Below are positions 7,624 through 62,680 of a DNA stretch of 64,000 nucleotides, in pieces. The position numbers were made by a program, and so were the translations under genes. The notes under the pieces are model-generated. The model was given only the letters and a program-made list of their open reading frames with translations, made no database searches and was not told the DNA's origin. The stretch comes from an uncultured Leptospirales bacterium. GTDB taxonomy: Bacteria > Spirochaetota > UBA4802 > JAFGDQ01. Within the stretch, counting starts at the first letter, position 1, and each line of letters opens with the position of its first letter. The DNA is taken from assembly GCA_964626055.1 (NCBI GenBank), contig CAZVDF010000005.1, forward strand, positions 6,057 to 70,056, written 5' to 3'.

Positions 7624-7633
7624 GGAGTATACC

Positions 7634-8530
7634 TTGGAAAAAATAATAGATTTTTTAAAATATAGATTTTTCGCGATCGGAATTTCCCTTGCATTATTAT
7701 TAATTTTTTCGTTTGTAACTTACATATACGGCGGATTCAACTGGGGCATCGATTTTAACGGCGGCGTTAAGACAATAGTGAAATTCGAGAAAAGCGTTGA
7801 TATTTCGAAAATCAGAGGCGTTTTGACCCAGAATAAGATCAGCGCGACTGTGCAGCAGATCGGTAAAGAAGAACAAAATAGCTACGTGATTGGGATCAAG
7901 CTTCTGGGCGAAGGCGAGACTTCCGAGAAAAGTTATCAGATGGTTAAAAGCGTCCTGGACAAAAGCTTTAAAAAAATTGAAGTTGTCAGCATTGAAACTG
8001 TCGGGCCTGCAATCGGGGCTTATTTAAGAAAATCCGGTATCCGGGCTACGATAATTGCTCTTCTGCTTATCATGATTTATCTCGCCTTCAGGTTCGAAAT
8101 TAAATACGCTGTAGGAGCAATAGCGGCGCTTGCGCACGATATTTTTCTTTCAGTGGCCTTTATCGGTTTTATGCAAATTGAATTCGATACTCCTGTCCTG
8201 GCAGCCATTCTTACACTGGCGGGATATTCCGTCAATGACACGATAGTCATTTTCGACAGAATAAGAGAAAATAAAAATATTGAATCAAAAGAGACTTTCG
8301 GGGAAGTAATTAATAAATCCGTAAGTCAGACGCTTACCCGGACGATACTTACATCGCTTCTGACCTTATTTGCAGTTATTGCTCTCTTTTTCCTCGGCGG
8401 GGAAACGCTGCACAGCTTTTCACAGGTTTTAATATTCGGTTTTATAATTGGATGTTATTCCACTATTTATATAGCATCTCCGGTAGTTCTCTGGTGGGAG
8501 AAATTAACCGCTAAAAAGATTAAATTGTGA
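7634..8530 (+). CDS. secF: Protein translocase subunit SecF
   Basis: 298 aa. Its TM pattern and conserved stretches are paralogous to the SecD C-terminus (VNDTIVIFDRIRE). Confidence 0.9.
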   Translation: MEKIIDFLKYRFFAIGISLALLLIFSFVTYIYGGFNWGIDFNGGVKTIVKFEKSVDISKIRGVLTQNKISATVQQIGKEEQNSYVIGIKLLGEGETSEKSYQMVKSVLDKSFKKIEVVSIETVGPAIGAYLRKSGIRATIIALLLIMIYLAFRFEIKYAVGAIAALAHDIFLSVAFIGFMQIEFDTPVLAAILTLAGYSVNDTIVIFDRIRENKNIESKETFGEVINKSVSQTLTRTILTSLLTLFAVIALFFLGGETLHSFSQVLIFGFIIGCYSTIYIASPVVLWWEKLTAKKIKL

Positions 8531-27085: not shown

Positions 27086-27931
27086 ATGATATCTTCAATT
27101 TTATTCTATAAAGTTATACGGGACAGTCACGTGAGATTAGAAGTTGAGATTGGCTTTAAAAGTAAACCGCCTTTTTTAATTCCTGCTACTTATAGAAGGA
27201 ATATAGTAAGCCTCATAAGAGAATCCGTAAGATCGACGGATACAACCATGGATATTTACACCAAATATTGGGGCGAGGGCAATGCCCAAAGCATAAAACC
27301 GTACACATTTTTTTTGTCTATCCCGGGTGTAAATTATATAAATCTTAAACGAAAAAGATATATAGAAGCCCATGAAGATTCGGTAAAGCTGCATATTTCA
27401 TCGAGCGATTCTATTCTTCTTTCAATCTTTCATAAATGGCTTAACAATAATAAGCTGTTTAATTTATTTAATATTAATGTTGAAGTAGCGGGAATAAGTT
27501 TAAAAAACATTAAAACAATAAACTCGAGCTCCGTCACTTTTAAGATTTTATCCCCTGTGATTGTAAGGGATACGGAAATCGAAGGAAGAAAGAGGAAGGG
27601 AACCGGATACTTATCCTGCAATGACCACGATTTTGAAGATTCCCTGTCGCATTCGATTCTGAATCTTTGCAGGCGTTTTTTATATAATAAAAGGATAAGC
27701 AGAAACGATATCGAGATCGATGCTTCTCTCTGCGCGCACTCGGTAATTTACCATTACATGGAGACAATCCCGGTTACCATAGGCCTGATAAAAATTAAAG
27801 CGGATGAAGATGTACTTGAGCTGGTATATAATACCGGTCTTGGAGCCAGGCGCAGCCAGGGATTCGGCATGGTCGAACTGGTGTCTGAATCCGGATTTGC
27901 GCCGGTGCCGGCAATGAAGGAACTCGCCTAG
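27086..27931 (+). CDS. cas6: Cas6-family endoribonuclease homolog (solitary)
   Basis: The N-terminal ferredoxin-like domain has the Cas6 KPF/YTFS-type motif (IKPYTFFLSIP). The C-terminus has the diagnostic glycine-rich loop G-h-G-x5-G-h-G followed by hydrophobic residues (GLGARRSQGFGMVELV). Confidence 0.7.
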   Translation: MISSILFYKVIRDSHVRLEVEIGFKSKPPFLIPATYRRNIVSLIRESVRSTDTTMDIYTKYWGEGNAQSIKPYTFFLSIPGVNYINLKRKRYIEAHEDSVKLHISSSDSILLSIFHKWLNNNKLFNLFNINVEVAGISLKNIKTINSSSVTFKILSPVIVRDTEIEGRKRKGTGYLSCNDHDFEDSLSHSILNLCRRFLYNKRISRNDIEIDASLCAHSVIYHYMETIPVTIGLIKIKADEDVLELVYNTGLGARRSQGFGMVELVSESGFAPVPAMKELA

Positions 27932-28097: not shown

Positions 28098-29414
28098 ATG
28101 TTTGAAAAACTTTTCAGGCTTAAGGAGAGAAATACAAGCGTAAAAATTGAAGTGCTGGCCGGTATTACGACTTTTATGACAATGGCATATATTATTGCGG
28201 CTAATCCGATGATCCTATCTGCTGCAGGGATGGACAAGGGCGCAGTAGTGCTGGCTACATGCATCGTGAGCGGCATCATTACTATTGTAATGGGATTGTT
28301 CTCGAACTACCCCATAGCGCTGGCGCCCGGAATGGGTATAAATGCGTTCTTTGCCTTCGCGATCTGCAAGGGAATGGGGATAGACTGGCGTGTTGGTCTT
28401 GGTTTCTTTTTTATTGAAGGTATAATAATTCTTATAGTCACAATGACCAAGCTTCGGGAAACGGTAATCAATTCAATTCCGATGTCTTTAAAATGCGCAG
28501 TAAGCGTCGGTATCGGACTTTTCCTGGCTTTTATCGGATTCGAGAATGCCGGTTTTATCGCGAAATCCGATGCCACATTTATTACAATAGCCCAGATCGG
28601 GAATCCTGATATTTATCCGAAAATAATTCTTGTTGCAATAGTTCTGATATTTACTACGATCCTGCTGTTCAAGAAAATTAAGGGCGCAATTCTTATCGGA
28701 ATAATTGTCGGCACCCTGCTGAGCTTTATACCGTTTTTTAATGCGAAAGGAGAGGCATTGCAGATACTTTCTCCGACTCTTGCTCCGACGTTTTTTCAAC
28801 TCGATATACTCGGCGCTCTGCAATGGTCTTTTGCGGCGTTGATCGTTACCCTGCTGTTCGTGGATTTTTTTGATACTGCCGGTACCGTCATAGGTCTGGC
28901 TGTTAAAGCGAAAGTCGTTGATAGCAAGGGCAGGATCCCGGGGATAGGGAGAGTACTCATCTCGGATTCTTTCGGACCGATCCTTGGCGCGCTGTTCGGA
29001 ACATCGACTGTTACTTCATACATTGAAAGTGCTGCCGGCATAGAAGAGGGAGGAAAGACCGGTTTGACTGCAGTTGTTACAGGTGTCCTGTTCTTAATCG
29101 CTATCGTGGCTGCGCCGCTTATCGGCTTTGTCCCGTCTGCGGCAGTAGCCCCTGCGTTGATAATAGTCGGTATAATGATGATGGAATCGGTGACCAGAAT
29201 AAATTTCTCCGATTACTCTGAAGCGGTGCCGGCGTTTATTACCATAGCAGTCATGCCGTTTACTTACAGCATATCAAACGGTATCTTTATGGGATTTTTA
29301 TCCTATGTTCTGATCAAATTGCTTTCAGGTAAGGCAAAAGAAATTTCAATAATAATGTATATACTTGCAGTTTTCTTTTTGTTGTTCTTTATATTTAGCC
29401 CTGTATATAAATGA
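28098..29414 (+). CDS. NCS2-family purine permease (AzgA/PbuG-like)
   Basis: 438 aa with about 12 TM helices. The N-terminal FRLKERNTSVKIEVLAGITTFMTMAYII is typical of adenine/guanine/hypoxanthine permeases. Confidence 0.8.
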   Translation: MFEKLFRLKERNTSVKIEVLAGITTFMTMAYIIAANPMILSAAGMDKGAVVLATCIVSGIITIVMGLFSNYPIALAPGMGINAFFAFAICKGMGIDWRVGLGFFFIEGIIILIVTMTKLRETVINSIPMSLKCAVSVGIGLFLAFIGFENAGFIAKSDATFITIAQIGNPDIYPKIILVAIVLIFTTILLFKKIKGAILIGIIVGTLLSFIPFFNAKGEALQILSPTLAPTFFQLDILGALQWSFAALIVTLLFVDFFDTAGTVIGLAVKAKVVDSKGRIPGIGRVLISDSFGPILGALFGTSTVTSYIESAAGIEEGGKTGLTAVVTGVLFLIAIVAAPLIGFVPSAAVAPALIIVGIMMMESVTRINFSDYSEAVPAFITIAVMPFTYSISNGIFMGFLSYVLIKLLSGKAKEISIIMYILAVFFLLFFIFSPVYK

Positions 29415-29448: not shown

Positions 29449-29480
29449 AAAACCGCGCATTAATGCGCGGTTTTTTTAAT
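29449..29480 (+). terminator. Rho-independent terminator after the permease gene
   Basis: aaaccgcgcat-taat-gcgcggttt stem plus a ttttttt tract. Confidence 0.6.
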
Positions 29481-29624: not shown

Positions 29625-30983
29625 ATGTTCTCCAAATTAAAAGCAGTATTGGTAATTTTTATAATATCCTTTACAGCAGTAAACGGCAATGCCGCCGCGG
29701 ATGGTACAGACGTACCCGGCTATAAACAGAAAGGCAACTTCGAACTGGGAGGCGCTTTCGGCACCCCGTCCGGATTAAATTCCAGATACTGGTTCACCGA
29801 AAGGTTCGGTCTTGATGTTAACGCAGGCGTTTCTCTCGAAAAAAGACCTGTGTTTACAATGGATTTTTTGGTGGAAGACTATAAGCTTTACAGATCAAGC
29901 ACGTTCGAGGCCAGGTTTTTTTACGGCCTGGGCGGTATGGTTGTAAAAGAGAAACACGACTATGAAAATAATTTAAGGATTCCTTTAGGATTTTCTTTCC
30001 CGATGATGCAATATCCTATTAATTTTTCCGTTTATGTCGCACCCGCTCTCATCGTGCATCCGAAGTCGGAATTCGACATTAACTGGGGTATAGGCGTCAG
30101 ATATAATTTCTCAAGGGCTTCCGAGATCATGGAAAAGCAGCATCATCTTGAAAGGGAAGTGGAGAGTCTTAAATACGGTCTCGATACTACAAAGGGAAAA
30201 CTTGCCGAGACTGAAGGAGAGCTCAGTAAAACAAAAGGCAAAGTAGATGAGCTGAACCATAGACTCTGGAATTTGAAAACCAAACTTGATAAAACGGAAA
30301 GCGAGCTTGATACCACGAAGACAAAATTAGTTCTGACGACCAGACAGCTTGATGACACGAAGAACCAGCTTGATGAGGTTAAGACTGAACTGCGGAACAC
30401 GAAAAAAAATCTGGACGACAAGCAGCTTGAACTTACAAAAAAGCAGTCTGAACTGGATAACGCGAAGATAATTATTGAAAATGCGTATACCGGGAAAATG
30501 AAAGAAGATGAAGAAGAAAAAATATCCAGGAAGCAGAAAGAACTTGATGATCAGAAAGCGGAATTAAATAATCAAAAAAAAGCCTGGGAACAGATAAAAG
30601 TCAAGGAGGCTCAAAAGAGAGAGGATTTAAAGAAGAAGTGCCAGGACAGAGGAGGAATCATAGATGAGAACGGATACTGCACGTGCCCGGAAAATCAGGA
30701 ATGGGATCCGAAGACAGATAAATGCGTCTGCGTAAAAGGATATTACAGGAACGGACCGGCAGAGAGATGCAAGCCGTGTGAAATAATAAAAGAAAGCGGA
30801 GAATGCGCAGGCGGCTGCGCGGATTTCGAGGAAAAAGTACGGTTGAAAAAGGGTCCGCATAAATTCGTTTGCGTGAAGAGATGCCGGAAAGCCAATGAGG
30901 TGTGGTCCAGACATAAAGGAGCATGTGTCTGCAGGGACGGTTATTACAGGAACGATGCCGGCGAATGCATAAAGAGGCAGTAA
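29625..30983 (+). CDS. Outer-membrane beta-barrel / long coiled-coil / Cys-rich C-terminal domain protein
   Basis: Signal peptide. The ~160-aa N-terminal region alternates hydrophobic residues and ends in an aromatic YNF (OmpA/OmpW-like 8-strand barrel). A ~180-aa heptad-like repeat region follows (LDTTKGKL, LDKTESEL, LDDTKNQL ...). The C-terminus carries about 12 Cys in EGF-like spacing (CTCPENQEWDPKTDKCVCVKGYY ... CVCRDGYY). Confidence 0.5.
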   Translation: MFSKLKAVLVIFIISFTAVNGNAAADGTDVPGYKQKGNFELGGAFGTPSGLNSRYWFTERFGLDVNAGVSLEKRPVFTMDFLVEDYKLYRSSTFEARFFYGLGGMVVKEKHDYENNLRIPLGFSFPMMQYPINFSVYVAPALIVHPKSEFDINWGIGVRYNFSRASEIMEKQHHLEREVESLKYGLDTTKGKLAETEGELSKTKGKVDELNHRLWNLKTKLDKTESELDTTKTKLVLTTRQLDDTKNQLDEVKTELRNTKKNLDDKQLELTKKQSELDNAKIIIENAYTGKMKEDEEEKISRKQKELDDQKAELNNQKKAWEQIKVKEAQKREDLKKKCQDRGGIIDENGYCTCPENQEWDPKTDKCVCVKGYYRNGPAERCKPCEIIKESGECAGGCADFEEKVRLKKGPHKFVCVKRCRKANEVWSRHKGACVCRDGYYRNDAGECIKRQ

Positions 30984-31002
30984 CATAATTATTTTAGTAT
31001 AA

Positions 31003-31092
31003 GGAGATAATGATAGTATCCCTAATTTCCTGCGGAACTCGGCCTTTGGCCTCAGACAGTCCTCGGAAATTTGGGATACTATCATTATCTCC
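31003..31092. other. Perfect 20-bp inverted-repeat stem enclosing a conserved 42-nt core, copy 1 (candidate structured RNA or REP-like element)
   Basis: ggagataatgatagtatccc (31003-31022) is the exact reverse complement of 31073-31092. The core ttcctgcggaactcggcct-ttg-gcctcagacagtcctcggaa (31027-31068) recurs at 60041-60082. Confidence 0.5.
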
Positions 31093-31154
31093 AATGGTAT
31101 TTATAAATTAATCTAAAGACAAGAAATTCAATTTTTTTATCCGGAGGAATAAAA

Positions 31155-31937
31155 ATGAGTTTTGCGAGAAGGGAATGGATCGCTCTCGGGATATCCGCGA
31201 TTGTTGCATTTGTTTTTATAGCGCTAATGACTGTCTTTCTCGGGAAGGGCCAGATGGGCATAATGCTCTTCGGGACGGACTCGGCCTACTATCCTTTTAC
31301 CCTTTACAATTTAATGCACCTGTTCTTTTTTATCGGACTTGGCCAGCTCTGGGTAAGATGGCTCAGCACATATGAAGAGAAAGTTTTTTTAAAAAAGTCC
31401 GGATTCCTTCCCGAAGACGAACATGCAATGTTAAAAACCGATGATGAAATCGAGAAAATAAGGATTAATGCAGCCAATGCGGCGGTAAGGGGAGAGGCTT
31501 TTCTTCCAGGGCTTATAAACAACTGCATAAATCAATATTTTAAATCTCATTCTGTAAGCGATACGATTTCCGTCTTAAACAGCGATCTTGAGCTGAATAT
31601 ACACAGGCTGGACCTGCGGTATTCCATGTGCAGATATATCGTCTGGGCTATCCCGACATTCGGATTTATCGGAACAGTGGTGGGGATCGCCGGGGCTCTT
31701 ACTAAACTTGATATTGTTAAATTCATGGGGTCGCAAACCGACAAGGTAGCGCAGTTCAGGATGCTGGCGTCCGATCTCGGATTCGCATTCGATACGACAA
31801 TAGTCGCGCTGGTTTTGAGCTCGATATTCGTATTTCTTATGCATATAGTCCAGAGCGGCGAGGAGGAAGTACTGAACAGATCCGGCAAATACGTACTGAC
31901 CAATCTGATAAATAAACTTGCCATAAAAAATAAATAA
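31155..31937 (+). CDS. MotA/TolQ/ExbB-family proton-channel protein
   Basis: Three TM segments. The conserved C-terminal helices (AIPTFGFIGTVVGIAGAL ... DLGFAFDTTIVALVLSSIFVF) match the MotA/TolQ/ExbB signature. Confidence 0.65.
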   Translation: MSFARREWIALGISAIVAFVFIALMTVFLGKGQMGIMLFGTDSAYYPFTLYNLMHLFFFIGLGQLWVRWLSTYEEKVFLKKSGFLPEDEHAMLKTDDEIEKIRINAANAAVRGEAFLPGLINNCINQYFKSHSVSDTISVLNSDLELNIHRLDLRYSMCRYIVWAIPTFGFIGTVVGIAGALTKLDIVKFMGSQTDKVAQFRMLASDLGFAFDTTIVALVLSSIFVFLMHIVQSGEEEVLNRSGKYVLTNLINKLAIKNK

Positions 31938-31942
31938 TTGAT

Positions 31943-32986
31943 ATGAGACGTCCCAATAGAGAATATAACATCTTCAATATATCGATGCTCGATACCATAT
32001 CGGGGGCGCTGGGCGCTGTCATGATCATTATGATAGTGCTGCTGACGCAGAAGATAGGTATTGAATCCATGTCGTGCCAGGATATCAAGGAAGAGCTGGC
32101 GACAACTTCAAGCAAACTGAGCGAAACAACCGAAGAACTCAGACAGACAAGAACGGAGCTTATAAAAAAAACATCGCGGGAAATTGCGGATGCTGAAAAA
32201 GTATTCAGCATCACCAGGATCATGGATAATACCGTGGGTAAAATAAAGCAGACTATCAATAAAATATATGAAATCAATAAAGAACTGTTTGAAAAGTCTC
32301 CGAGCAGGGGAATGTCGTTCAACATCCCGAAGAAAATCGTTATGCTTATCGATCTTTCCGGAAGCATGGCGGCGGAAAATAATAAGTACAAAGAAGACAG
32401 GCTGTCCCAGCTTAAAGCCGCTTTAAAAATGTTTATTGCAGGCATGGACCCGGATTATTATATTGACATAGTTTATTTTCCCGCTTTTCCTGAAAATATT
32501 GACAGAAAGCTGTACCCGGATTTTATTATTAAGCCTGTACTTGACGCAAAATGCAAGAATTTTGAGATGAGGGACGAAGCTTACGACAATCCGGGACTGA
32601 GCTGCTATAAATACGGATATTTTGAAGGATCGCTTAAAAAGATCCATTCCGAAGATGACAAATCCAATTTTTACAGAAAGATTGAATGTCTTAAAGCCTA
32701 TCACGATACGCCGACGGAAATTGCGCTTGATTTTGTACTATCGGATAATAGATATAGGGATGCGGAGGGAATAATACTGTTCAGCGACGGCCAGCCGGAC
32801 GCTCTAAGAAAGAAAAAAATGACAACAGAGACGTTGCTCAAGCATATTAAAAACAGGAATAAATCAAATAAAAAGATATTCACAGTCGGAGTTGGAACCG
32901 AATTCAGGAACAGAGAGGACAGCCTTGCCGTCGATTTTTCGAAAAAGCTTGCTGAGCAGAATGAAGGATTTTATATCGGCTTTTAA
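31943..32986 (+). CDS. ExbD/TolR/MotB-like membrane anchor fused to a coiled coil and a von Willebrand factor A (VWA) domain
   Basis: N-terminal single TM with a conserved Asp (NISMLDTISGALGAVMIIMIVLL), a charged coiled-coil linker, then a VWA domain with MIDAS DxSxS (IVMLIDLSGSMAAEN) and a downstream DG motif (ILFSDGQPD). It follows the MotA-like gene with a 5-nt gap. Confidence 0.6.
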   Translation: MRRPNREYNIFNISMLDTISGALGAVMIIMIVLLTQKIGIESMSCQDIKEELATTSSKLSETTEELRQTRTELIKKTSREIADAEKVFSITRIMDNTVGKIKQTINKIYEINKELFEKSPSRGMSFNIPKKIVMLIDLSGSMAAENNKYKEDRLSQLKAALKMFIAGMDPDYYIDIVYFPAFPENIDRKLYPDFIIKPVLDAKCKNFEMRDEAYDNPGLSCYKYGYFEGSLKKIHSEDDKSNFYRKIECLKAYHDTPTEIALDFVLSDNRYRDAEGIILFSDGQPDALRKKKMTTETLLKHIKNRNKSNKKIFTVGVGTEFRNREDSLAVDFSKKLAEQNEGFYIGF

Positions 32987-42852: not shown

Positions 42853-44418
42853 ATGAGCGATAAAGAAAACAATTCACATCCTGATGATATGTATTATACT
42901 ATCGAATCCAGACTTAAAAATGACGGATACTTTGTGTTCTCGCACGATGAAATAAAAAGTCAGGGGAACAATAATATTTTCAAGCGAATGCCGTATATTT
43001 CGGAACAGATTATTGAGCCGAAATTGTTTGAAAATCAGGAAATGCCGGAGAGAAGAATTCCGGAAAATAAGAGCGCAGAAACGGAACCTTCCGACCGTGC
43101 GCAGAATTTAATACTCGGGTATATTAAAGACCATGCCAAGCCGGAAAGAAAGATAGATGACGCTCAATACGATGTACTGACAATCATATCCAACTTGCAG
43201 TATCATATGCAGAGGATTTCGCGCAATGTAGTAGGACGCGAAGAAATAATACAGCAGCTGATGTATGCCGTACTCACCGGCGAGCATATGCTTCTTATGT
43301 CAAGGACGGGGATGGCTAAATCCTATCTCGCAAATGAAGTATTTAACTCATTCGAGAATATAAGAATATTTTCCGCGCAGGCCAGCAAGGACCAGACGCC
43401 GGATAACTATTTCGGTCCTTATGATATCGAACAATTTAAGAGGGGTATAATAAGGCATAATATAAAAGGATCGATTATCGAGGCGAACCTTGTGCTCCTG
43501 GACGAATTCTTCGATGCAAGCGACGTTGTTCTGAGGTCACTGCTTTCAGTATTGAATGAAAGAAAGTTTATCAACGGTTCCGAGCAGATAGATGTGGCAA
43601 TTCATACCGCTATTGCGACGGCCAACTATCTGAGACTCAACGAAGTAACGGAAGCGGTACTTGACCGATTTTTATACAAAGCAATTATTCCCGAAGACAA
43701 CGACATGTACAATAGTCTGCTCATAGACAAAGCGTATTCCTCAAGAAAAGGAAAACCTGAAGACCCGGGCAGGAAGATCCCGTTCGATCAGATCTTATTT
43801 GTCCAGAATATAATTAGAAATAACTATAAGCAGATAAAAATTAATTATCCCGATTCCGTCAAATTTATGAAAAATGTGGTTATCAACAAATTTACTTCGG
43901 AAATCAGAAAAAGCGAACCGGAATTTTTTATAAGCCCCAGGAAACAGGCAAAGATGTCGGATTTCCTCAGGGCGTCCGCCATGCTTGATAACCGCAGCGA
44001 GGTTACTTTGCAGGATTTAAGAAATATGTATTTTGCGCTTGTTACGCTTAACAGGTATATTTCAGTAAAACAGAAGGAAAAACAGTTTAAAGATGTTTTT
44101 ATAGACGCATATGAACAGACAATGTCCCATTTTAAGGCCACTAACGCCTTTCAGCAGATCGATTTCCTGCTGAATATAAAAAGTATATTCCAGGTTTTGA
44201 GAGAGGACCCGGGGAAAAAGGAAAGATTGCACGAAGAAAAAGGACTGCTCCAGGGAGTGAAAGCCCTTTTCATGAAAATTTTCCCGCTTAAGAGGGATGA
44301 TGAAAATATAACGACAGTCGATTCGCTGAAAAAAAGCGTTATTGATCTAAATCCGGCTGTTGAAGAAGTAAGGGATTTAAAGCAGGGGATTCTTCGCGAT
44401 TATAAAGATATTTATTGA
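42853..44418 (+). CDS. MoxR/RavA-like AAA+ ATPase with a ~130-aa N-terminal extension
   Basis: VVGREEIIQQLMYAVLTGEHMLLMSRTGMAKS (a RavA-type P-loop whose first Gly is replaced), Walker B LVLLDEFFDAS, and the MoxR hallmark AVLDRFL. Confidence 0.7.
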   Translation: MSDKENNSHPDDMYYTIESRLKNDGYFVFSHDEIKSQGNNNIFKRMPYISEQIIEPKLFENQEMPERRIPENKSAETEPSDRAQNLILGYIKDHAKPERKIDDAQYDVLTIISNLQYHMQRISRNVVGREEIIQQLMYAVLTGEHMLLMSRTGMAKSYLANEVFNSFENIRIFSAQASKDQTPDNYFGPYDIEQFKRGIIRHNIKGSIIEANLVLLDEFFDASDVVLRSLLSVLNERKFINGSEQIDVAIHTAIATANYLRLNEVTEAVLDRFLYKAIIPEDNDMYNSLLIDKAYSSRKGKPEDPGRKIPFDQILFVQNIIRNNYKQIKINYPDSVKFMKNVVINKFTSEIRKSEPEFFISPRKQAKMSDFLRASAMLDNRSEVTLQDLRNMYFALVTLNRYISVKQKEKQFKDVFIDAYEQTMSHFKATNAFQQIDFLLNIKSIFQVLREDPGKKERLHEEKGLLQGVKALFMKIFPLKRDDENITTVDSLKKSVIDLNPAVEEVRDLKQGILRDYKDIY

Positions 44419-44527
44419 TTCATACACCGTTATGTTTTTCCGGCTGATAATTCTAAAAATTTAATGCGACGGTACAGCAACCGATTTTAAAACAATATTT
44501 AACCTTGCAGTCTTTTTATATATTTCA

Positions 44528-46165
44528 ATGACAACTCATATCCGTACTCCGAATTTTTTTGAATATTGGGAAACGCTCGGTTTCTTCGATAATTTACAGA
44601 TGACGCTGCCGCGTGAGTTTTTTCTTCTTTTCGATATCGCCCGCCTGATAGCGTCGCAGGCTGAATCCTCGGAAGCCACCGATGCAATCGATGAATTATC
44701 AAAAACGCACGTCGTTGAACCTTATGATAAAACTAAGAGCATTGCGATAAACAGATTGGAAAAGAATGTCGCATTAGGCGATAAGATGGAAATTGAGAAT
44801 TATAAAACTATTTACGATCTGAAAAAAGCGCTTCCGCGAGAGCTTTTTCTGGAAAAGCAGGTATTCAATATCAAGCTCTTTACTAAAACACTCCAGGTGC
44901 AGAAACATTTCGATACGGATACCGATAAATTTATTCATATATCCCCGATAAAGAACGACAGGGGAAGGAATAAGACCAGATTCGATCAGAAATTTTTTCT
45001 ACTACTGGATAGATCCCGTTCAATGGACAACAGAATGAGATCTTTTTTTTCGAAAAGTATTGTTGTTGAATTTTTGCGAAGAAAACTGAACAGCAACGCC
45101 AAATTATTCTACAGGGCATTTGATTCAAAGCCTGGATCCTTAATGAAAATAGAGGACAAAGAAGATTTCCCGGCTCTGATAGAAAAAGTACTATTCACTA
45201 CGACCGGCGGAACAAGCACAAATATGCAGGCAGCGATATTCCAGGCTATTGACGATATAAGTTATGACAAGGAGATGGCGGATGCGGAAATCCTGGTTGT
45301 CACGGACGGGCTTGTGCACGATCTGGACATAGAAAGAATGAAGGAAGAATTGAAGGATATTAAACTAAATATTTTAAAGATCGGGCGTGATCTGGCAGAA
45401 CCGGATAATTATCAGATTAAGAAATTGTTAACTGATGCCGGATACGATTTCGATCCGTTCTCGGTAAGTATTAAGGAAATAAAGAAAAAACTTTCAAACG
45501 ACGGCGGTAGAGAAAATATCAAACCTCTGACCAATGTTGAACAGAGAATATTTAAATATATGCTGGAATGTTCTGAAAAGATCATCAGTGATATAAAAAA
45601 AATTTCATTCAGATTTATCGAGATTGACGATATTAATTCTTCTTCTCTTATTGAGCTGAGCGAAGAAACGGCTAAATTTATCGAAACAGCGGTAAAGGAA
45701 TTAAAAAATACCGATCTAAGCGATAAAACCATTCAGGAACGTTCGATAATTTACAAGAAGGTCTATTTCTTAAGCCAGTACATTGAATTCCTTTTGAAAT
45801 CCGGCAAAGATAAAAATAATCCTCTTCTTGAAAACTCGGCAAAAGAACTTTTTTTGATGAAAGAGGCAATGTTAAGCGATCCCAGCCTCTTCGATATTAT
45901 TATGAGAACAAAAGGATTTGAAGAAGATAAAAAAATATTAAAATCAGTAAAAAAAACGGCCAGGAAAAATCTCAAAGAAATGAATCTTAAAAAGAAAAAT
46001 TTAACCAGGGATGAGATTAAGAATGCGCAGATGGTTTTTTCCATGGGTTCTGTCGGAGATTCGGGTAATTTCGGGCAATTGATCCGTATTTTAATTATAA
46101 AATTATGGGAGTTCCTGAAGGCATCAATAAAAAAACTTCTCGATCATATCGGACATCATGATTAA
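44528..46165 (+). CDS. VWA-domain protein (ViaA-like partner of the MoxR ATPase)
   Basis: MIDAS DxSxS in FFLLLDRSRSMDN, a downstream T (TTTGGTST) and DG (VVTDGLVHD). Long Lys/Glu-rich C-terminal extension. Confidence 0.65.
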   Translation: MTTHIRTPNFFEYWETLGFFDNLQMTLPREFFLLFDIARLIASQAESSEATDAIDELSKTHVVEPYDKTKSIAINRLEKNVALGDKMEIENYKTIYDLKKALPRELFLEKQVFNIKLFTKTLQVQKHFDTDTDKFIHISPIKNDRGRNKTRFDQKFFLLLDRSRSMDNRMRSFFSKSIVVEFLRRKLNSNAKLFYRAFDSKPGSLMKIEDKEDFPALIEKVLFTTTGGTSTNMQAAIFQAIDDISYDKEMADAEILVVTDGLVHDLDIERMKEELKDIKLNILKIGRDLAEPDNYQIKKLLTDAGYDFDPFSVSIKEIKKKLSNDGGRENIKPLTNVEQRIFKYMLECSEKIISDIKKISFRFIEIDDINSSSLIELSEETAKFIETAVKELKNTDLSDKTIQERSIIYKKVYFLSQYIEFLLKSGKDKNNPLLENSAKELFLMKEAMLSDPSLFDIIMRTKGFEEDKKILKSVKKTARKNLKEMNLKKKNLTRDEIKNAQMVFSMGSVGDSGNFGQLIRILIIKLWEFLKASIKKLLDHIGHHD

Positions 46166-50945: not shown

Positions 50946-52388
50946 ATGTTTAAAAACCTGAAAAAATTTATCACAGAACTCGAGTTACAGGGTGAGCTTC
51001 GAAGGATTAAAACGGAAACCGATCCGTACCTTGAAATTACGGAAATTACCGACCGCGTGAGTAAAGCGAACGGGCCCGCGCTTTTATTCGAGAAAGTAAA
51101 AGGGGCCGCCTTCCCGCTCCTTATAAACGCTTTCGGAAGTTATAAACGAATGCAGATCGCGTTGAATTGCGGTTCATTTGATGAAATCGCTAAAAAAATA
51201 GAGTCTTACATGAAAATAGAGCCGCCTTCAGGACTCGGCAATAAAATTAAAATGCTTTTCACTTTAAAGGAAGTGGCGGATTATATCCCGAAGACTGTTA
51301 GGCATGCTCCGTGCCAGGAAAACACATTGAACGCGGAGACATCCCTGCTTGATTTGCTTCCCATTATTACCTGCTGGCCGGGAGACGGAGGCCCTTTCAT
51401 TACGTTACCTGTAGTGATCACGAAAGATCCCGATAACGGGATACAGAATGCCGGTATGTACCGGATGCATAAATACGATCGGGCAACGACCGGAATGCAC
51501 TGGCAGTACAACAAGGACGGAGCAAATCATTTTTCCAAATATAAAAACGCGGGTAAGCGCATGGAAGTCGCTGTTGCCCTCGGCGGACCGCCTGCAGTAA
51601 CGTATTCCGCGACCGCGCCTCTTCCGCCGAATATAGACGAGTTTATGTTCGCGGGTTTTATTAATGGCAGGGCAGTGGAGCTTGTCAAGGCAAGGACAGT
51701 CGATCTTCTTGTGCCTGCAGAATCGGATTTTATTATCGAAGGTTATGTCGATACTGAAGAATCGCGCATTGAAGGCCCGTTCGGCGACCATACCGGTTTT
51801 TATTCGGCGAGCGATACATATCCTGTATTTCATGTTAACTGTATTACCTATAGAAACGATGCAATATATCCTGCCACTATCGTGGGCAAGCCCCCGATGG
51901 AGGATTGCTACATGGCAAAGGCGACTGAGCGTATATTTCTTCCAATGATTAAAATGATCGTTCCCGAACTTGTCGATATGGAGCTTCCGATCGAGGGAGT
52001 GTTCCATAACTGCGCGCTTATTTCGATCGATAAAAAATTTCCGGGACAGGCCAAGAAAGTGATAAATGCATTATGGGGGCTTGGACAGATGTCTTCGACC
52101 AAATTCATAGCCGTGTTTGATAAAGACATCGATCTTCGCGATCCGTCTGCTGTCGTGTGGAAACTTTTGAACAATGTTGATCCGAAGAGGGACCTGATAT
52201 TTTCGGAAGGGCCGCTTGACGCTCTGGATCATTCCGCGCCTTACCCGAATTTCGGCGGCAAAATGGGAATAGACGCAACCCGCAAGACGAGAGAAGAGGG
52301 AATGGGCAGGGAATGGCCGGATGAAATTAAAATGTCAGATGATATAATTCAAAAAGTCAGCAAAAGATGGAAGGATTATGGATTTTAA
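50946..52388 (+). CDS. UbiD-family decarboxylase (menaquinone/futalosine-pathway decarboxylase-like)
   Basis: 480 aa with the UbiD fold pattern (GGPFITLPVVITKDPDNGIQNAGMYRM) and C-terminal prFMN-binding region. It lies next to a UbiA homolog and mqn genes. Confidence 0.8.
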   Translation: MFKNLKKFITELELQGELRRIKTETDPYLEITEITDRVSKANGPALLFEKVKGAAFPLLINAFGSYKRMQIALNCGSFDEIAKKIESYMKIEPPSGLGNKIKMLFTLKEVADYIPKTVRHAPCQENTLNAETSLLDLLPIITCWPGDGGPFITLPVVITKDPDNGIQNAGMYRMHKYDRATTGMHWQYNKDGANHFSKYKNAGKRMEVAVALGGPPAVTYSATAPLPPNIDEFMFAGFINGRAVELVKARTVDLLVPAESDFIIEGYVDTEESRIEGPFGDHTGFYSASDTYPVFHVNCITYRNDAIYPATIVGKPPMEDCYMAKATERIFLPMIKMIVPELVDMELPIEGVFHNCALISIDKKFPGQAKKVINALWGLGQMSSTKFIAVFDKDIDLRDPSAVVWKLLNNVDPKRDLIFSEGPLDALDHSAPYPNFGGKMGIDATRKTREEGMGREWPDEIKMSDDIIQKVSKRWKDYGF

Positions 52389-53220
52389 AACATTCGGCAG
52401 GCTGATCCTGATTGAGCAGACCCTTTTTGCTTTGCCTTTTGCTTATCTTGGAATACTATTTGCCGGAAAGGCTTCAATCGGGATATGGGTATGGGTGACT
52501 CTGGCTTTGGCCGCAGCCAGAACCGCCGGCATGTCTTTTAACCGTGTTATTGATGTCGATTTTGACTCAAAAAATCCAAGAACAAAAGACAGGCTGCTGC
52601 CTCAGGGAAAAGTATCGAAAAAATCAGTATGGCTCATAGCAGCTTTTTCCTGTCTGGTTTTGATAGGCTCTTCATTCATGCTGAATATGCTGTGCTTTTA
52701 TCTTTCTTTTATCGCTGTAATCCTGTTGTTTACATATTCCTATTTCAAACGGTTTTCATCGTCTTCGCATTTTTATCTTGGATTTGTGGAGGCAGCCGCG
52801 CCTGTCGGAGGTTATCTCGCAGTAACCGGCGCGTTCGATGTGTTGCCTTTTGTACTCGGTATAGTTATCATGACCTGGATAGCGGGGCTTGATATTGTTT
52901 ATGCCATTCAGGATGTCGACTTCGACAGAGTTGAAAAGCTCCATTCTTTGCCCCTGGCTATCGGCAGGAACAGGGCGCTTTTTATTTCAGCATGCTGTTA
53001 TATTGTTGCCGTTATCGGGCTTGTATATGCCGGTATATCGGCCGGAAGAAATATTCCATACTGGATCGCGGTAATTTGCACGACTTTAATATTTATTTAT
53101 CAGCAGAAGCTCGCTCGTAGCAGCGATATAGCAAATGCGGTAAGGAAGTTTTTTAAAGTAAATACATTTATTTCTCCTGTTCTGTTAATAGGTACTTTTA
53201 TAGATGTGTATTTTATGTGA
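52378..53220 (+). CDS. UbiA-family prenyltransferase (menaquinone-specific, futalosine-pathway type)
   Basis: Eight to nine TM helices. Asp-rich motifs NRVIDVDFD and DIVYAIQDVDFD. It overlaps the UbiD-like gene by 11 nt. Confidence 0.8.
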   Translation: MDFKTFGRLILIEQTLFALPFAYLGILFAGKASIGIWVWVTLALAAARTAGMSFNRVIDVDFDSKNPRTKDRLLPQGKVSKKSVWLIAAFSCLVLIGSSFMLNMLCFYLSFIAVILLFTYSYFKRFSSSSHFYLGFVEAAAPVGGYLAVTGAFDVLPFVLGIVIMTWIAGLDIVYAIQDVDFDRVEKLHSLPLAIGRNRALFISACCYIVAVIGLVYAGISAGRNIPYWIAVICTTLIFIYQQKLARSSDIANAVRKFFKVNTFISPVLLIGTFIDVYFM

Positions 53221-53285
53221 AAGTTATAAAATTATATTTTGGACTACAAATTGTTATAAGAGAGAAAAGTCATTGCTTCTGCGGA

Positions 53286-53426
53286 CCCCCTAACCCCCAG
53301 AGGGGGCACCGGCTTGGAAGGATTTAGCCAACGTGTCTTTATATTGTATACGGTTAATAAACAAAGCGGGAATTAAATTTAATTATTTTTTTGATAGTTA
53401 TTGTGCCCCCTCCGGGGGTTAGGGGG
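53286..53426. repeat. GC-rich inverted-repeat element 1 (24-bp IR arms, ~93-bp AT-rich interior)
   Basis: ccccctaacccccagagggggcac (53286-53309) versus gtgccccctccgggggttaggggg (53403-53426) has one mismatch as a reverse complement. Confidence 0.5.
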
Positions 53427-53564
53427 AACATGGAAGGCATATTTTAATAATCAACATTGCTTACTTAATGTTTAAATAAATGTGGGTAGATGTCAGTTTA
53501 AAGGGGAAAGTGGTGAGGGCATTTGTCTCCAAAATTTTTTAAAAGATGGAAAAGTTAAAAAATC

Positions 53565-54653
53565 ATGAATCTTCCAGATAAAATAAAAGATACAAAGCTT
53601 CGCGCTATCGCTGAAAAGGTGCAAGCAAAAATTCCGGTCGATGAAGCCGACACCCGTTTTATGCTTACAACAAACGATATTCTGGATCTGGGCGCAATTG
53701 CTAACTTTGTCAGGATGGAGCGCTACGGTAAAAGTACGTATTACAGCGTTAACATGAATCTCAATTATAGCAATATCTGCGAGCTGAGATGTCCGCTATG
53801 CGCTTATTCATGCGATAAAGGCGATAAGAATGCATTTCTTCTGTCTCTCGATGATATAGGGCAGCGTGTACAAAAGGCTGTTAATGCCGGAATTGACGAA
53901 GTTCATATAGTCGGAGGACTTAATCCGGAACTTAAACTCGATTATTTTGAGTCAATGCTCAGAAGGATAAAAAAGGTAAAGAAGGATATTGTTATTGTAG
54001 CTTTCACAGCAGTTGAATACGACTACTTTGCAAAACTTAACAATCTTTCACTTGAGGATGTTTTTAAAAGACTGATAGATGCAGGCCTTGATGCTATACC
54101 CGGAGGTGGAGCTGAAATATTCTCTTCAAATGTGAGGAACATCATTTCTCCTAAAAAGATTTCCGGCGACAGATGGCTTGAAGTAATGAGGACGGCTCAT
54201 GATTTCGGATTAAAGACCAATGCGACAATGCTGTATAACCAGCTTGAAGAAACTGACGATATTATAGATCATCTGTTCAGGATACGCGCGCTTCAGGAGG
54301 AGACAAGCGGATTTAAAACATTTGTGCCCCTCCTTTTCCACGGCGAAAATACGCAGATAAGATCAAAGCGCTCAACTTCAACGGGATACGACGACATCAG
54401 AATTTATGCGACAGCAAGAATTGTGCTACATAATGTTCCGCATATCAAGGCTTTGTGGATGTATCTCGGCGAGAAAATGGCGCAGCTATTGCTTAACTTC
54501 GGAGTTGACGAGCTCGGCGGGACATACGAAAACGAGAAGGTCGTTCATGCTGCCGGAGCAGGGACTCCGGATTATGGTACGGAGAGTTTTCTTGTACGCT
54601 TGATTAAAGAAGCGGGACTTAAGCCTGTCAGGTCGACGGCGCTGTATAGATAG
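53565..54653 (+). CDS. Radical SAM menaquinone biosynthesis enzyme, MqnC/MqnE family
   Basis: CELRCPLCAY (CxxxCxxC), the TIM-barrel radical SAM pattern, and a C-terminal region typical of futalosine-pathway MqnC/MqnE. The paralog cannot be resolved by eye. Confidence 0.75.
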   Translation: MNLPDKIKDTKLRAIAEKVQAKIPVDEADTRFMLTTNDILDLGAIANFVRMERYGKSTYYSVNMNLNYSNICELRCPLCAYSCDKGDKNAFLLSLDDIGQRVQKAVNAGIDEVHIVGGLNPELKLDYFESMLRRIKKVKKDIVIVAFTAVEYDYFAKLNNLSLEDVFKRLIDAGLDAIPGGGAEIFSSNVRNIISPKKISGDRWLEVMRTAHDFGLKTNATMLYNQLEETDDIIDHLFRIRALQEETSGFKTFVPLLFHGENTQIRSKRSTSTGYDDIRIYATARIVLHNVPHIKALWMYLGEKMAQLLLNFGVDELGGTYENEKVVHAAGAGTPDYGTESFLVRLIKEAGLKPVRSTALYR

Positions 54654-54731
54654 TCTCTGTTTGGTAGCTTTCCTTTCTAAGGGGCTGAGCCGTAACTTAC
54701 TAAAAGAATATATTACTGGTTTTCTGCTTTC

Positions 54732-54915
54732 GGCCCCCTAAATCCCCTTAAAGGGGGACTTAAAAGATTAGTTTTGGTATATAATGGAAAATTGTTTTAG
54801 TATATCAGATTGGATTTATTTTAGTCACTTATCTCGAAATGTGAATGGTATTATCGACTCAAATTTGAGGTCAGGTTGCAAATAAAAGTCCCCCTTTAGG
54901 GGGATTTAGGGGGCC
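54732..54915. repeat. GC-rich inverted-repeat element 2 (30-bp IR arms, ~125-bp AT-rich interior)
   Basis: ggccccctaaatccccttaaagggggactt (54732-54761) versus aagtccccctttagggggatttagggggcc (54886-54915) has one mismatch as a reverse complement. It shares the ccccctaa / ttaggggg motif with element 1. Confidence 0.5.
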
Positions 54916-54952
54916 TTTAATACTGAATTAACAGTTTTCTCGGGTAAAATTT

Positions 54953-55756
54953 ATGAAACTCGGTTATATTGATTATCTAAACTGCTATCCGTTTTATTAT
55001 CATATGTTCGAGAAGAAATCCGTCCCGGATATAAAAGTATTCCCGGATTATCCGAGCAGTCTGAACAGGATGATGCAAAACGGCGACCTCGACATGAGCC
55101 CCATATCCGCAGGCGCATACCCGGATATCGCCGACCGCGCGGTGCTTCTCCCTGATTTCTGCTTAAGCTCCGTAGGCTACGTCGGTTCCGTTAATCTTGT
55201 AAGCAAGGTGCCCATAGAAGAGCTTAGCGGCAAAGCTATTGGTGTTACGAACGCGTCCGCGACTTCCGTTGCGTTAATGAAAGTTCTGCTTGAAAAGTTC
55301 TACGGTCTTATACCTGAGTATATTCCTTCGCCGCCGCTGCCCGACATGAATAAATTCGACGCTGCCCTTTTGATCGGCAACGAGGCAATGATGACGCTTC
55401 CTCTGCCCGTATCTTTCAAATACGACCTTGGTGAGCTATGGTACAGGAAAACGGGCTATCCTGTTGTGTTCGCTGTTTTCGCAGTTCAAAAATCGGCAAT
55501 AGAGAAATATAAATTACAAATTGGCAATGTCGTAGATTCGTATAAAAGATCCCTCGAATGCATGAAAACCGAAAAGGATAAAGTCGTCCGCAAAGCAATG
55601 AAGCGTTATCCGGACATTGTTTATAACGTCGATTTTTACTATAGCTTATTTAAGTTTGAGTTCACAAAGGAACTTAAAGAAGCGCTGCTTTATTACTTTA
55701 AGCTTGCGGGCGAGATGGGGCTTTTAAAGAAAATAGATAGAATTGAGACTCTGTAA
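54953..55756 (+). CDS. Menaquinone biosynthesis protein, MqnA/MqnD family (periplasmic-binding-protein-like fold)
   Basis: N-terminal MKLGYIDYLNCYPFYY and an overall ~270-aa pattern typical of chorismate dehydratase MqnA / MqnD. Confidence 0.7.
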   Translation: MKLGYIDYLNCYPFYYHMFEKKSVPDIKVFPDYPSSLNRMMQNGDLDMSPISAGAYPDIADRAVLLPDFCLSSVGYVGSVNLVSKVPIEELSGKAIGVTNASATSVALMKVLLEKFYGLIPEYIPSPPLPDMNKFDAALLIGNEAMMTLPLPVSFKYDLGELWYRKTGYPVVFAVFAVQKSAIEKYKLQIGNVVDSYKRSLECMKTEKDKVVRKAMKRYPDIVYNVDFYYSLFKFEFTKELKEALLYYFKLAGEMGLLKKIDRIETL

Positions 55757-56143
55757 AAATATTTTTAAATTATATATCTATTTGTAAGCATATTTAATAA
55801 ACAATAGCCGCCGTAAAACCGGCCGTTCCTAGTTCCGAAAAATTATTTTCATCAACTATAAATTCGTTAAAGAGTAATATTGAATTTTGTCTTTCATCCT
55901 TTTCGTTTCCTCAAGATGAGTGGATCAGTTTAAGAACAACAAACGTTATTGAAAGAGTAAATAATGAATTTAAACGTTGTATAAGGTCAATGGAAATATT
56001 GGCGGATTCAGAATCGACATACAGATTATTATATTTTGTAGCTCTGAAAATGGAATTAACTTGGTGATCAGCACCATTGAGAAGGAATAATCTTCTAGCT
56101 AATGAAAAATTTACACAAAAAATTTGATTCTACTCAGAAAGTC

Positions 56144-56290
56144 TGTGCATAAAGACTGACAAATCATATAAAGATTTAAATGCAGATTATTACGAAATTA
56201 TGTATTATAAACGTGTCTTGAAAAATTTTAAGTATTAGGCACCCCAATTGGAATTCTCTTTATTGCCTTTACAGGCTAAGTATCCCAGAA
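56144..56290. repeat. Direct repeat DR1 (~147 bp), upstream copy
   Basis: tgtgcataaagactgacaaatcatataaagatttaaatgcagattattacgaaattatgtatt ... tatcccagaa is about 90% identical to 57465-57610. Confidence 0.65.
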
Positions 56291-56360
56291 GAAGAAAATA
56301 GCATTTACATAAAAAATTTTATTCTGAAAATTTCATAAAAATAATAGGAGGTAATGTATA

Positions 56361-57437: not shown

Positions 57438-57464
57438 ATCGCAAATTAATGTAAGGTAGGTATA

Positions 57465-57610
57465 TGTGCATAAAGACTGACAAATTATATAAAGATTTAA
57501 ATGCAGATTATCACGAAATTATGTATTGAAAACGTGTCTTGAGAAATTTTAAGTATAAGGCACCCAATTGGAATTTTCGTTATTGCCTTTACAGACTTAG
57601 TATCCCAGAA
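57465..57610. repeat. Direct repeat DR2 (~146 bp), downstream copy
   Basis: See DR1. Together the two copies bracket only the 4Fe-4S gene. Confidence 0.65.
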
Positions 57611-57683
57611 TCTTTTCATATTTTCGAGAGTTATCGAATCAGTTCCGGAAGTCGTTCTTAAAAATTTTATAATGTATTTTAAT

Positions 57684-59093: not shown

Positions 59094-59319
59094 GCTTTAT
59101 TCTCCTTAAAATGTAAATTATGACAATATTGATTTATTTAAAAAATTATTTACAAGGAATTAATCAATTTGATTTGTTTCACCATAAAATTTGTTGCAAT
59201 TTGAATTGAAATACTACAACCCGTCCTTAAAATAATAATTTACATAAGTAACTGAAAATCATCTCGAAATTATTGATTCAATAAATGATTAACGATAAAT
59301 CGGAATATATAATAAATTT

Positions 59320-59916: not shown

Positions 59917-60015
59917 AATCTTATCATTTTATCGTGGTGTTAAATATTAACTTAGAGTGCGTCCTAAAATTCTTATACTTTTTTATGCTGTATATAAGCA
60001 ACAATCGTTGGCAAA

Positions 60016-60095
60016 GGGATATATCATAAATCAATTTAAATTCCTGCGGAACTCGGCCTAGAGCCTCAGACAGTCCTCGGAACTATGATATGTCC
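60016..60095. other. Conserved 42-nt core, copy 2, inside an imperfect inverted repeat
   Basis: The core ttcctgcggaactcggcct-aga-gcctcagacagtcctcggaa (60041-60082) matches copy 1 in 39 of 42 positions, the three differences being the central trinucleotide. It is flanked by gggatatatcata / tatgatatgtcc. Confidence 0.45.
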
Positions 60096-62666: not shown

Positions 62667-62680
62667 CATGCTTTAATATC

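Follow-up and report, generated by a model that had tools for sequence, protein, structure and literature searches.

Three consecutive genes on the forward strand of a 64,000-nucleotide stretch of an uncultured Leptospirales genome (contig CAZVDF010000005.1; the whole stretch is called the window here) encode an outer-membrane barrel protein (P1), a channel subunit of the MotA/ExbB/TolQ family (P2) and a membrane-anchored von Willebrand factor A (VWA) protein (P3). It appears somewhat likely that the three genes constitute a single operon encoding an envelope-spanning apparatus with a non-canonical 5:2-type motor at its core, driven by the proton motive force (PMF) and linking the inner and outer membranes via the VWA domain and P1. 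The alignment of channel residues, an invariant aspartate in P3, the coupling of the genes, the absence of a canonical B subunit and the quantised length of the P1 rod all count for this motor reading. A preliminary description of this DNA had presented the trio as an undescribed system. That claim is overstated because a core consisting of a TolQ-like channel and an Asp-helix vWA protein was proposed in 2025 (PMC12204202), while the single-vWA spirochaete trio with its likely outer-membrane partner is new. The trio is an unnamed, uncharacterised and widespread variant of a proposed kind of motor and not categorically new. All three same-strand open reading frames (ORFs) are found at the positions first reported for them, with the following features (AF2, AlphaFold2; pLDDT, predicted local distance difference test):

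29625-30983, + strand: P1, 452 aa; signal peptide (aa 1-25), barrel (36-162), rod (163-338) and Cys-rich head (339-452)
29730-30110, + strand: P1 beta-barrel domain, ending ...GIGVRYNF, with invariant G/W/R/P columns
30111-30638, + strand: P1 coiled-coil rod with 'TKGxLxxTxxEL' heptad repeats; AF2 helices 162-196, 200-287 and 291-341
30639-30980, + strand: P1 Cys-rich head, 14 invariant Cys, beta-rich, pLDDT ~85
31155-31937, + strand: P2, 260 aa, divergent MotA/ExbB/TolQ-family A subunit
31644-31685, + strand: P2 channel motif WAIPTFGFIGTVVG; P167 corresponds to MotA P173, T174 to TolQ T145/ExbB T148
31785-31799, + strand: second P2 channel motif, AFDTT; T215 corresponds to TolQ T178/ExbB T181/MotA T209
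31943-32986, + strand: P3, 347 aa, putative B-subunit analogue with basic N-terminus, Asp helix, stalk and VWA head with a metal ion-dependent adhesion site (MIDAS)
31967-32050, + strand: putative P3 transpore helix NIFNISMLDTISGALGAVMIIMIVLLTQ; Asp17 codon at 31991-31993
32084-32290, + strand: P3 helical stalk, aa 48-116, an AF2 helix
32318-32983, + strand: P3 VWA domain; DLSGS at 32351-32365, T256 at 32708-32710, D282 at 32786-32788

P2 is a divergent A subunit whose conserved residues align with those of known channels. It scores 39.6 bits against Pfam MotA_ExbB (PF01618, cutoff 22.9) over residues 131-234, and PF01618 is found in all listed members of a set of 342 P2 homologs except the truncated P0189. 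A 21-member P2 alignment contains two invariant stretches, W164-x-IPT168-x-GFIGTV175-x-G177 and A211-F212-x-T214-T215. With the E. coli sequences added, P167, T174 and T215 match the channel columns of TolQ, ExbB and MotA. In the TolQ/ExbB/MotA families, these Pro and Thr positions line the channel around the B-subunit aspartate. The original assignment of P2 as a MotA/TolQ/ExbB channel carrying the signature of transmembrane (TM) helices 2 and 3 is borne out by the above-cutoff domain match and the aligned Pro/Thr columns. Scores against the NCBIfam PomA and MotA models are 15.4 and 15.2 bits (cutoffs 341 and 380), which does not reach equivalog level, and the best solved relative by sequence in a PDB search is PomA at E = 0.19. 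The hydropathy profile is compatible with three or four TM helices. Judged from its sequence, P2 is presumed to form a pentameric ion channel, the stator ring of the motor.

P3 combines a putative B-subunit helix with a VWA domain that carries a complete MIDAS. The basic N-terminus (MRRPNRE) is followed by the sole strongly hydrophobic segment of the protein (residues 16-34 by hydropathy). This agrees with a single N-in TM helix whose Asp is close to the cytoplasmic end. Across 58 aligned homologs with 29-85% identity, F11, L16, D17 and G21-A25 are invariant, and the Asp helix is the best conserved part of the family. An Asp is present at residue 15-18 in 82 of the 87 P3 homologs found at 87 loci. 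In an Asp-anchored comparison showing a basic stretch, 'INI..LLD' and a hydrophobic helix, D17 lies opposite TolR D23, ExbD D25 and MotB D32. Using hhalign, P3 D17 is likewise placed on TolR D23 in the same register, over 12 columns only and with P = 0.083 and a probability of 0.7%. Full-length P3 has no match to Pfam ExbD (PF02472), nor do the isolated N-termini of seven members at E ≤ 10, and a PDB search with the P3 profile returns VWA and coiled-coil matches with no motor B subunit among them. The B-subunit helix claim therefore rests on context since sequence statistics do not show homology. Of the ExbD/TolR-type TM segment with its Asp that had been put forward at the outset, the single TM helix and the invariant D17 stand, and homology to ExbD/TolR does not reach statistical significance. 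The N-terminus also does not turn out to belong to an unrelated TM family without the Asp.

The periplasmic part of P3 is a coiled coil followed by a VWA domain and not an ExbD-type domain. The AF2 model contains a TM helix (13-41), a long helix of low confidence (48-116) and a domain with a pLDDT above 90 (126-347), the low confidence of the long helix being attributable to the use of a monomer model for a dimeric stalk. Foldseek matches the VWA domain to ITIH1 with E = 1.9e-9, followed by CLCA1, calcium-channel alpha2-delta, SpaC and integrin I-domains. Against Pfam VWA_2 the window protein scores 26.1, just under the threshold of 27, and most homologs pass Pfam VWA models. The MIDAS residues D137-x-S139-x-S141, T256 and D282 do not vary among 58 sequences. 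Both the fold and these residues confirm the coiled coil and VWA/MIDAS domain first noticed in P3. The span from membrane to VWA domain is 90-94 aa and near constant in Spirochaetota. An insertion of ~45 residues with conserved Cys ('P..C.....D.AY......CYKYG.F.G.L'; window 32489-32650, P3 aa 183-236) is present in the VWA domain of Spirochaetota and of an unclassified group and absent from the Bdellovibrionota and Bacteroidota forms.

The P2-P3 pair is conserved across several phyla and the complete trio within Spirochaetota. P3 homologs form 115 clusters at 90% identity, and a scan of one genome per species finds P3 relatives in 210 genomes, with no Idiomarina among its best 80 loci. In 72 of the 87 loci the P3-like gene is immediately preceded by a P2-like gene, and the pair is kept down to ~28% identity. 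The P2 stop and P3 start codons overlap or are no more than 30 nt apart in 68 of 74 scorable loci, with -4 or -1 overlaps in 31 of these 68. In the window, the spacing is 5 nt (TAA-TTGAT-ATG), as reported before, and there is no obvious ribosome-binding site before the P3 start. All 87 loci contain a single P3-type gene, as do the more distant loci L094, L097 and L098. The pair occurs in metagenome-assembled genomes of Spirochaetota/Leptospirales, in Bdellovibrionota, in the unclassified group (L004, L026, L027) and in one Chitinophagales locus. Cultured carriers are Halobacteriovorax sp. CON-3 and Bacteriovorax sp. DB6_IX (Bdellovibrionota; L044, L047). In 22 of 23 Spirochaetota loci, P2 is immediately preceded by P1, the sole exception being a 1.9-kb contig, and the P1 family consists of 35 clusters, all of them spirochaetal. 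The genes flanking the trio are not conserved between species, and no conserved third gene accompanies the pair in Bdellovibrionota, where synteny is local only. This arrangement of the trio is far beyond chance, and the synteny in related genomes that the preliminary description had asked about is thus present. L055 is the sole Bacteroidota locus with a MotA-like gene in the fetched flanks; Bacteroidota P3 homologs (Chitinophagales/Sphingobacteriales) have 400-480 aa with a coiled coil of ~180-250 aa and keep the Asp helix and VWA domain.

No canonical B subunit accompanies P2. E. coli ExbD, TolR and MotB have no match among the ORFs of the 87 loci (±7 kb, phmmer E ≤ 1e-3), and with the same threshold E. 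coli TolQ, ExbB and MotA find almost no P2-like ORF, TolQ giving one and MotA two marginal matches. A search for the ExbD/TolR-type helix motif in all six frames of the window returns P3 alone. Similarly, a Pfam scan of the 40 other ORFs of the window contains no Tol/Ton/Mot component and no FHA, PP2C or kinase gene, and tolA, tolB and pal (ybgC/cpoB) are missing from the 43 window ORFs scanned in total. The possibility raised earlier that P2 is an ordinary TolQ with its tolR and tolA elsewhere is not supported in the window or in the 87 loci.

The Asp helix follows P2-type channels even where the head of the protein is a different one. The gene after the closest non-spirochaete P2 relatives (41-48% identity) encodes a protein of 226-296 aa in which the same Asp helix is joined to a different, beta-rich head, for which no Pfam match is found. 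The helix '...IFNLSMLDV..GALGA...' comes after P2-like genes in all of these loci (L085-L087, L092, L093). Since the same helix follows P2-like genes whatever the head, it is the helix, and not the head, that co-evolves with the channel. This tracking of the P2-type channel is the strongest contextual evidence for the helix as the B-subunit element of the channel. A sister system is located on plasmid pRlBT01d of Rhizobium leguminosarum (NZ_CP125637.1, L093:3945-7277), and likewise in L085, L086, L087 and L092, with an Asp helix such as IEIFSMSVLDLFASALGG and a beta-rich head such as WDTPGVDIDLGVRDP. This Rhizobium locus, reached via one partial match of P0355 in a plasmid collection, sits on a 1.3-Mb replicon of a cultured organism, and we found no description of the sister system in the literature. 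The plasmid collection gave no match to P3. In a profile search covering 1.84 billion representatives, the VWA-headed family comprises 83 clusters at E ≤ 1e-30 and 714 at E ≤ 1e-10. Distant members share a common plan of a basic N-terminus, '...F-s-h-S-h-LD-h-h-s-x-ALG...', a coiled coil of ~100 aa and a VWA domain with DxSxS. A MotA_ExbB gene adjoins all four distant relatives with readable context, immediately before the VWA gene in three loci and immediately after it in L095.

P1 is predicted to be an outer-membrane protein with a long rod and a disulfide-rich tip. Its N-terminal domain is an 8-stranded OmpA/OprF-type barrel that follows the signal peptide and matches the N-domains of OprF and OmpA, and a Pfam scan of P1 returns no OmpA match. 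Across 32 family members, the rod has 180-236 aa, and 31 of these rods differ in length from that of the window P1 by exactly a whole number of heptads (multiples of 7 aa). Such heptad-phase-preserving indels indicate that the coiled coil is continuous and that selection acts on its length, and these multiples of 7 are what would be expected of a rigid spacer. Coiled coils rise 0.148 nm per residue, which gives a rod of ~27-35 nm if straight. The rod probably faces the periplasm. For the Cys-rich head, sub-threshold matches are obtained to TIL in 14 of 15 members (best E 5.7e-4), to TNFR_nem in 8 of 15 and to EGF_4 in 3 of 15, and a PDB profile search yields the TIL-like inhibitor IMPI with E = 0.009. 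The initial outline of P1 as an outer-membrane barrel, coiled coil and Cys-rich head holds; the label 'EGF-like' is no more than descriptive, as the matches to TIL, TNFR cysteine-rich and EGF domains are all sub-threshold. We also considered a covariation of P1 rod and P3 stalk lengths, for which the near-constant stalk (90-94 aa) leaves nothing to correlate.

The unclassified locus L026 (1979-9948) represents a second, independent association of the P2-P3 pair with a disulfide-rich envelope protein. Here a 953-aa protein containing four DsbA/thioredoxin domains and a 349-aa lipoprotein carrying four EGF domains (Pfam EGF, 48 bits) are encoded directly upstream of the pair, and the genes downstream code for an MlaD/MCE protein and one resembling CvpA. 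The DsbA-repeat protein, MlaD and CvpA are shared with L004. BLAST does not relate the Cys-rich head of P1 to the L026 lipoprotein, and the parallel is architectural only.

Based on these features, we propose the following mechanism for the motor. P2 would act as the A subunit and form a pentamer in the inner membrane. P3 would replace ExbD/TolR/MotB, with its Asp17 helix located inside the P2 ring in a presumed 5:2 stoichiometry. (De)protonation of Asp17 against the ring of P2 Thr174 and Thr215 could then couple proton flow to a rotation or power stroke of the P3 dimer. The P3 stalk of ~70-90 residues would lift the two MIDAS heads ~10 nm above the membrane, where the MIDAS of each VWA domain would be expected to hold an acidic residue of its binding partner via a bound divalent cation. 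In Spirochaetota, this partner would most likely be P1, contacted through the disulfide-rich tip of a rod descending from the outer membrane. P1 would have its barrel in the outer membrane and its C-terminus in the periplasm, with rod and Cys head taking the place of a peptidoglycan-binding domain. By a logic similar to that of Tol-Pal and TonB, the motor could use the VWA-P1 link to pull on, tether or probe the outer membrane, and its physiological role may thus lie in outer-membrane tethering, integrity or spacing. P1 had been named as a plausible interaction partner before; what supports this suggestion is its strict synteny within Spirochaetota, and it is missing from every other pair-bearing lineage.

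Several observations weigh against this motor reading. The apparent likeness of the P3 helix to ExbD/TolR falls short of statistical significance. The AF2 model of P1 shows two breaks in the rod (197-199, 288-290) and a predicted template modelling score (pTM) of 0.37, and as a result the rod may fold back and fall short of the full-length estimate. Since Bdellovibrionota, Bacteroidota and the other lineages with the pair have no P1, this protein cannot be the universal VWA ligand. The Cys-bearing VWA insertion is also found in a group without P1 and does not strictly correlate with it. In 13 Bacteroidota loci (L036, L037, L039, L041, L046, L048, L050, L056, L059, L063, L064, L072, L078), the Asp-helix-VWA gene has no MotA-like gene in the fetched flanks. 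Finally, all four sampled distant Asp-helix-VWA relatives are part of FHA/FHA-trypsin/PP2C/Ser-Thr-kinase clusters (L094:326-5897, L095:118-7424, L097:500-8838, L098:375-5906), and the sister clade with other heads (e.g. L085, L087, L092, L093) is found in FHA/PP2C/kinase clusters as well. The distant cassettes consist of an FHA protein, an FHA-trypsin fusion, a further FHA protein, MotA_ExbB and the Asp-helix-VWA protein, together with PP2C, a Ser/Thr kinase or a WD40/Kelch protein. Such a context suggests a frequent coupling of this motor family to phospho-Thr signalling, and it points to signalling, not mechanical tethering, as the ancestral setting.

A bolder version of the motor reading sees in the trio a complete and self-contained machine that transmits force across the envelope and is peculiar to uncultured Leptospirales-like spirochaetes. 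In it, the MIDAS heads of a PMF-driven P2(5)P3(2) rotor would grip the disulfide-rich tip of P1 and do the job of Tol-Pal, as part of a modular motor superfamily. We regard this version as doubtful. If true, P1 would be a length-quantised coiled-coil ruler, and the machine would tether the outer membrane and set the width of the periplasm around the periplasmic flagella using parts unlike those of Tol-Pal. A MotA-like channel and Asp helix with interchangeable heads would in this case constitute an unrecognised modular superfamily with many members wired to FHA, PP2C and kinase proteins.

The signalling neighbourhoods could alternatively mean that the system is a sensor. The VWA domain would then sense a periplasmic ligand, a metal or the state of the envelope, P1 would serve as a scaffold or as the structure being sensed and not as a load, and P2-P3 would relay the signal across the inner membrane by gating ion flow or by changing the cytoplasmic domain of P2. 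Periplasmic VWA domains do serve as sensors in the Pseudomonas type VI secretion PpkA/Fha1/PppA pathway, and the relatives embedded with FHA, FHA-trypsin, PP2C and Ser/Thr-kinase genes (L085, L087, L092-L095, L097, L098) fit such a role. However, no FHA, PP2C or kinase genes are found next to the trio in the window or in 22 spirochaete loci, the cytoplasmic part of P2 is small, and a length-quantised rigid rod would suit a mechanical spacer better than a ligand. We consider a sensor unlikely for the trio, yet keep it in play because P1 is confined to one phylum, Bacteroidota lack an adjacent channel gene and the distant relatives occur in phospho-signalling clusters.

Anti-phage defence of the Zorya type or similar, with a MotAB-like motor as a sensor of envelope breach, is a good deal less probable still. 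P2 has a weak match to PADLOC ZorA2 (E 0.0031, 14.6 bits), the genes flanking the trio vary between species, and the trypsin-FHA and kinase neighbours of the relatives resemble conflict systems. The ZorA match is however limited to the shared MotA domain, P2 (260 aa) does not have the long ZorA tail, and P3 has neither a peptidoglycan-binding domain nor a PADLOC match beyond the coiled-coil noise also seen for P1. ZorC-, ZorD- or ZorE-type genes are not present, and the neighbouring genes have housekeeping functions and do not form a defence island. Phage genomes do not contain the P2-P3 pair, and viral contigs are essentially free of it; a phage-borne origin is rejected since there is no real presence in these collections. 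The last alternative, an ordinary TolQ/ExbB next to a Bat-like anchored VWA protein and an unrelated outer-membrane protein, could draw on the generic nature of MotA_ExbB, on how common membrane-anchored BatA/BatB are (P3 has a weak NCBIfam BatA match of 13.6 bits) and on the Bacteroidota VWA genes without a MotA-like neighbour, but is excluded, with hardly any probability left to it, by the synteny and the gene coupling: the pair persists across phyla with start/stop codon overlaps, the invariant Asp helix tracks the P2 clade under any head, canonical A- and B-subunit queries find next to no P2-like and no B-subunit ORF, and the BatA score is far under its cutoff of 380.

The closest described counterpart is the TPH-vWA system, for which membrane-tethered vWA proteins were reported to co-occur tightly with tolQ homologues and without tolR/exbD (Mol Biol Evol 2025, section 8, Fig. 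4c-d; PMC12204202). That proposal is computational only and derives from genomics and AlphaFold 3 models. The vWA genes described there are predominantly heterologous pairs, mainly from Proteobacteria and Verrucomicrobia, their function is given as unknown, no outer-membrane partner is named and spirochaetes are not mentioned. Shared with the trio are a MotA/TolQ-family gene beside a tethered vWA gene, the lack of tolR, exbD and motB, the helix with a conserved Asp and the Thr of the A subunit, as well as the proposed role as a PMF motor with a dimeric axle carrying vWA heads. In contrast to the paired vWA genes, a single vWA gene is present per locus here (87/87), the carriers belong to Spirochaetota, Bdellovibrionota and Bacteroidota, and the spirochaetes add P1 with its barrel, rod and Cys head. 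Compared by description and not by sequence, the window module agrees with every architectural feature of the published system except the pairing of vWA genes. Full-text literature searches returned no description of P1, of single-gene forms in Spirochaetota, Bdellovibrionota or Bacteroidota or of the FHA/PP2C/kinase association.

Other trans-envelope systems share individual elements with the trio. Tol-Pal likewise combines an inner-membrane MotA-family channel and Asp-helix partner with a long helical periplasmic element and an outer-membrane-anchored partner encoded in the operon, and PMF-dependent coupling of both membranes is the presumed role of both. It differs in that the window contains no TolA, TolB or Pal, the periplasm-spanning helix resides mainly in the outer-membrane protein P1 and not in an inner-membrane TolA, the B subunit itself bears a binding head (VWA) and P2 is not found by E. 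coli TolQ. With ExbB-ExbD-TonB, the trio has in common the aligned channel Thr, a B-type helix with an Asp at the matching position and the presumed delivery of energy to an outer-membrane protein. TonB and the ExbD periplasmic domain are missing here, however, and P1 is an 8-stranded barrel with a periplasmic rod whereas TonB-dependent transporters have 22 strands. P1 also departs from OmpA/OprF by having a coiled-coil rod of ~180 aa and a 14-Cys head in place of the peptidoglycan-binding domain. The Myxococcus Agl-Glt gliding machinery similarly joins a TolQR-type PMF motor, a VWA/MIDAS protein (CglB) and outer-membrane components across the envelope, but the adhesin CglB is a separate outer-membrane lipoprotein used with ordinary TolR-like subunits, while in P3 the VWA domain is fused to the Asp helix; Glt genes are not present. 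Literature searches returned PMC9946355 on this machinery. In contrast to MotAB/PomAB stators and Zorya, P3 does not have a peptidoglycan-binding domain, and P2 scores far below the stator equivalog cutoffs. BatA/BatB proteins differ by their genetic context, as the neighbours of P3 are unrelated and do not form a Bat operon with MoxR, DUF58 and BatB-D.

To our knowledge, ion-driven 5:2 motors (MotAB, ExbBD, TolQR, GldLM, ZorAB) are the sole route by which inner-membrane energy reaches the periplasm and outer membrane, and we know of no new output module of these motors that has not revealed a new cell-envelope process. A motor axle with a MIDAS-type VWA head has so far been suggested from genomics alone, and the ligand of this head is the question it raises. 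The spirochaete operon offers a concrete candidate, P1, and turns the ligand question into a binding experiment. The family is now extended to Spirochaetota, Bdellovibrionota and Bacteroidota, and genetics is possible because the cultured Halobacteriovorax and Bacteriovorax isolates carry family members. The other heads and their FHA/PP2C/Ser-Thr-kinase context, for example in Rhizobium leguminosarum, hint at a link between envelope motors and phospho-signalling.

The immediate surroundings of the trio contain the following additional features:

28098-29414: upstream gene, Xan_ur_permease
29449-29474, + strand: intrinsic-terminator-like hairpin 3' of the permease gene, 11-bp stem and T-run
31003-31092, + strand: hairpin within the P1-P2 spacer of 171 nt; its 20-nt arms are a perfect inverted repeat

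The transcription unit is delimited on its 5' side by the hairpin at 29449-29474, and terminator prediction yields none between P1, P2 and P3. The P1-P2 hairpin has a folding free energy (dG) of -55.5 kcal/mol (z -7.2), occurs once in the window and has no match in Rfam. In relatives, the same spacer contains unrelated GC-rich hairpins or measures just 18-24 nt. We rejected this hairpin as a component of the system because it is not conserved among relatives and is local to this genome, where it could set the ratio of P1 to P2/P3 expression.

The flanks of the trio consist of unrelated housekeeping genes encoding enoyl-CoA hydratases, the xanthine/uracil permease and an FAD oxidase, and of a lone Cas6 gene (27086-27931; Pfam Cas_Cas6_C, 79.9 bits). 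No other cas domains are found among the scanned window ORFs, and the 64-kb window contains no CRISPR-like tandem array. The window also encodes a bpMoxR-type AAA+ ATPase (Pfam 'MoxR domain in the MoxR-vWA-beta-propeller ternary systems', 116.6 bits) and, next after it, a 545-aa ORF without a Pfam match; both are located ~10 kb downstream of the trio (42853-46165). VWA proteins are the usual partners of MoxR ATPases. Envelope genes of the window include an Omp85/BamA-like gene (39-1277), an LpxD-like hexapeptide transferase gene (1931-2950) and SecD/SecF (5812-8530). The region 50946-63742 encodes UbiD/UbiA and a futalosine-type menaquinone cluster with VitK2_biosynth and two CofH/MqnC radical-SAM genes.

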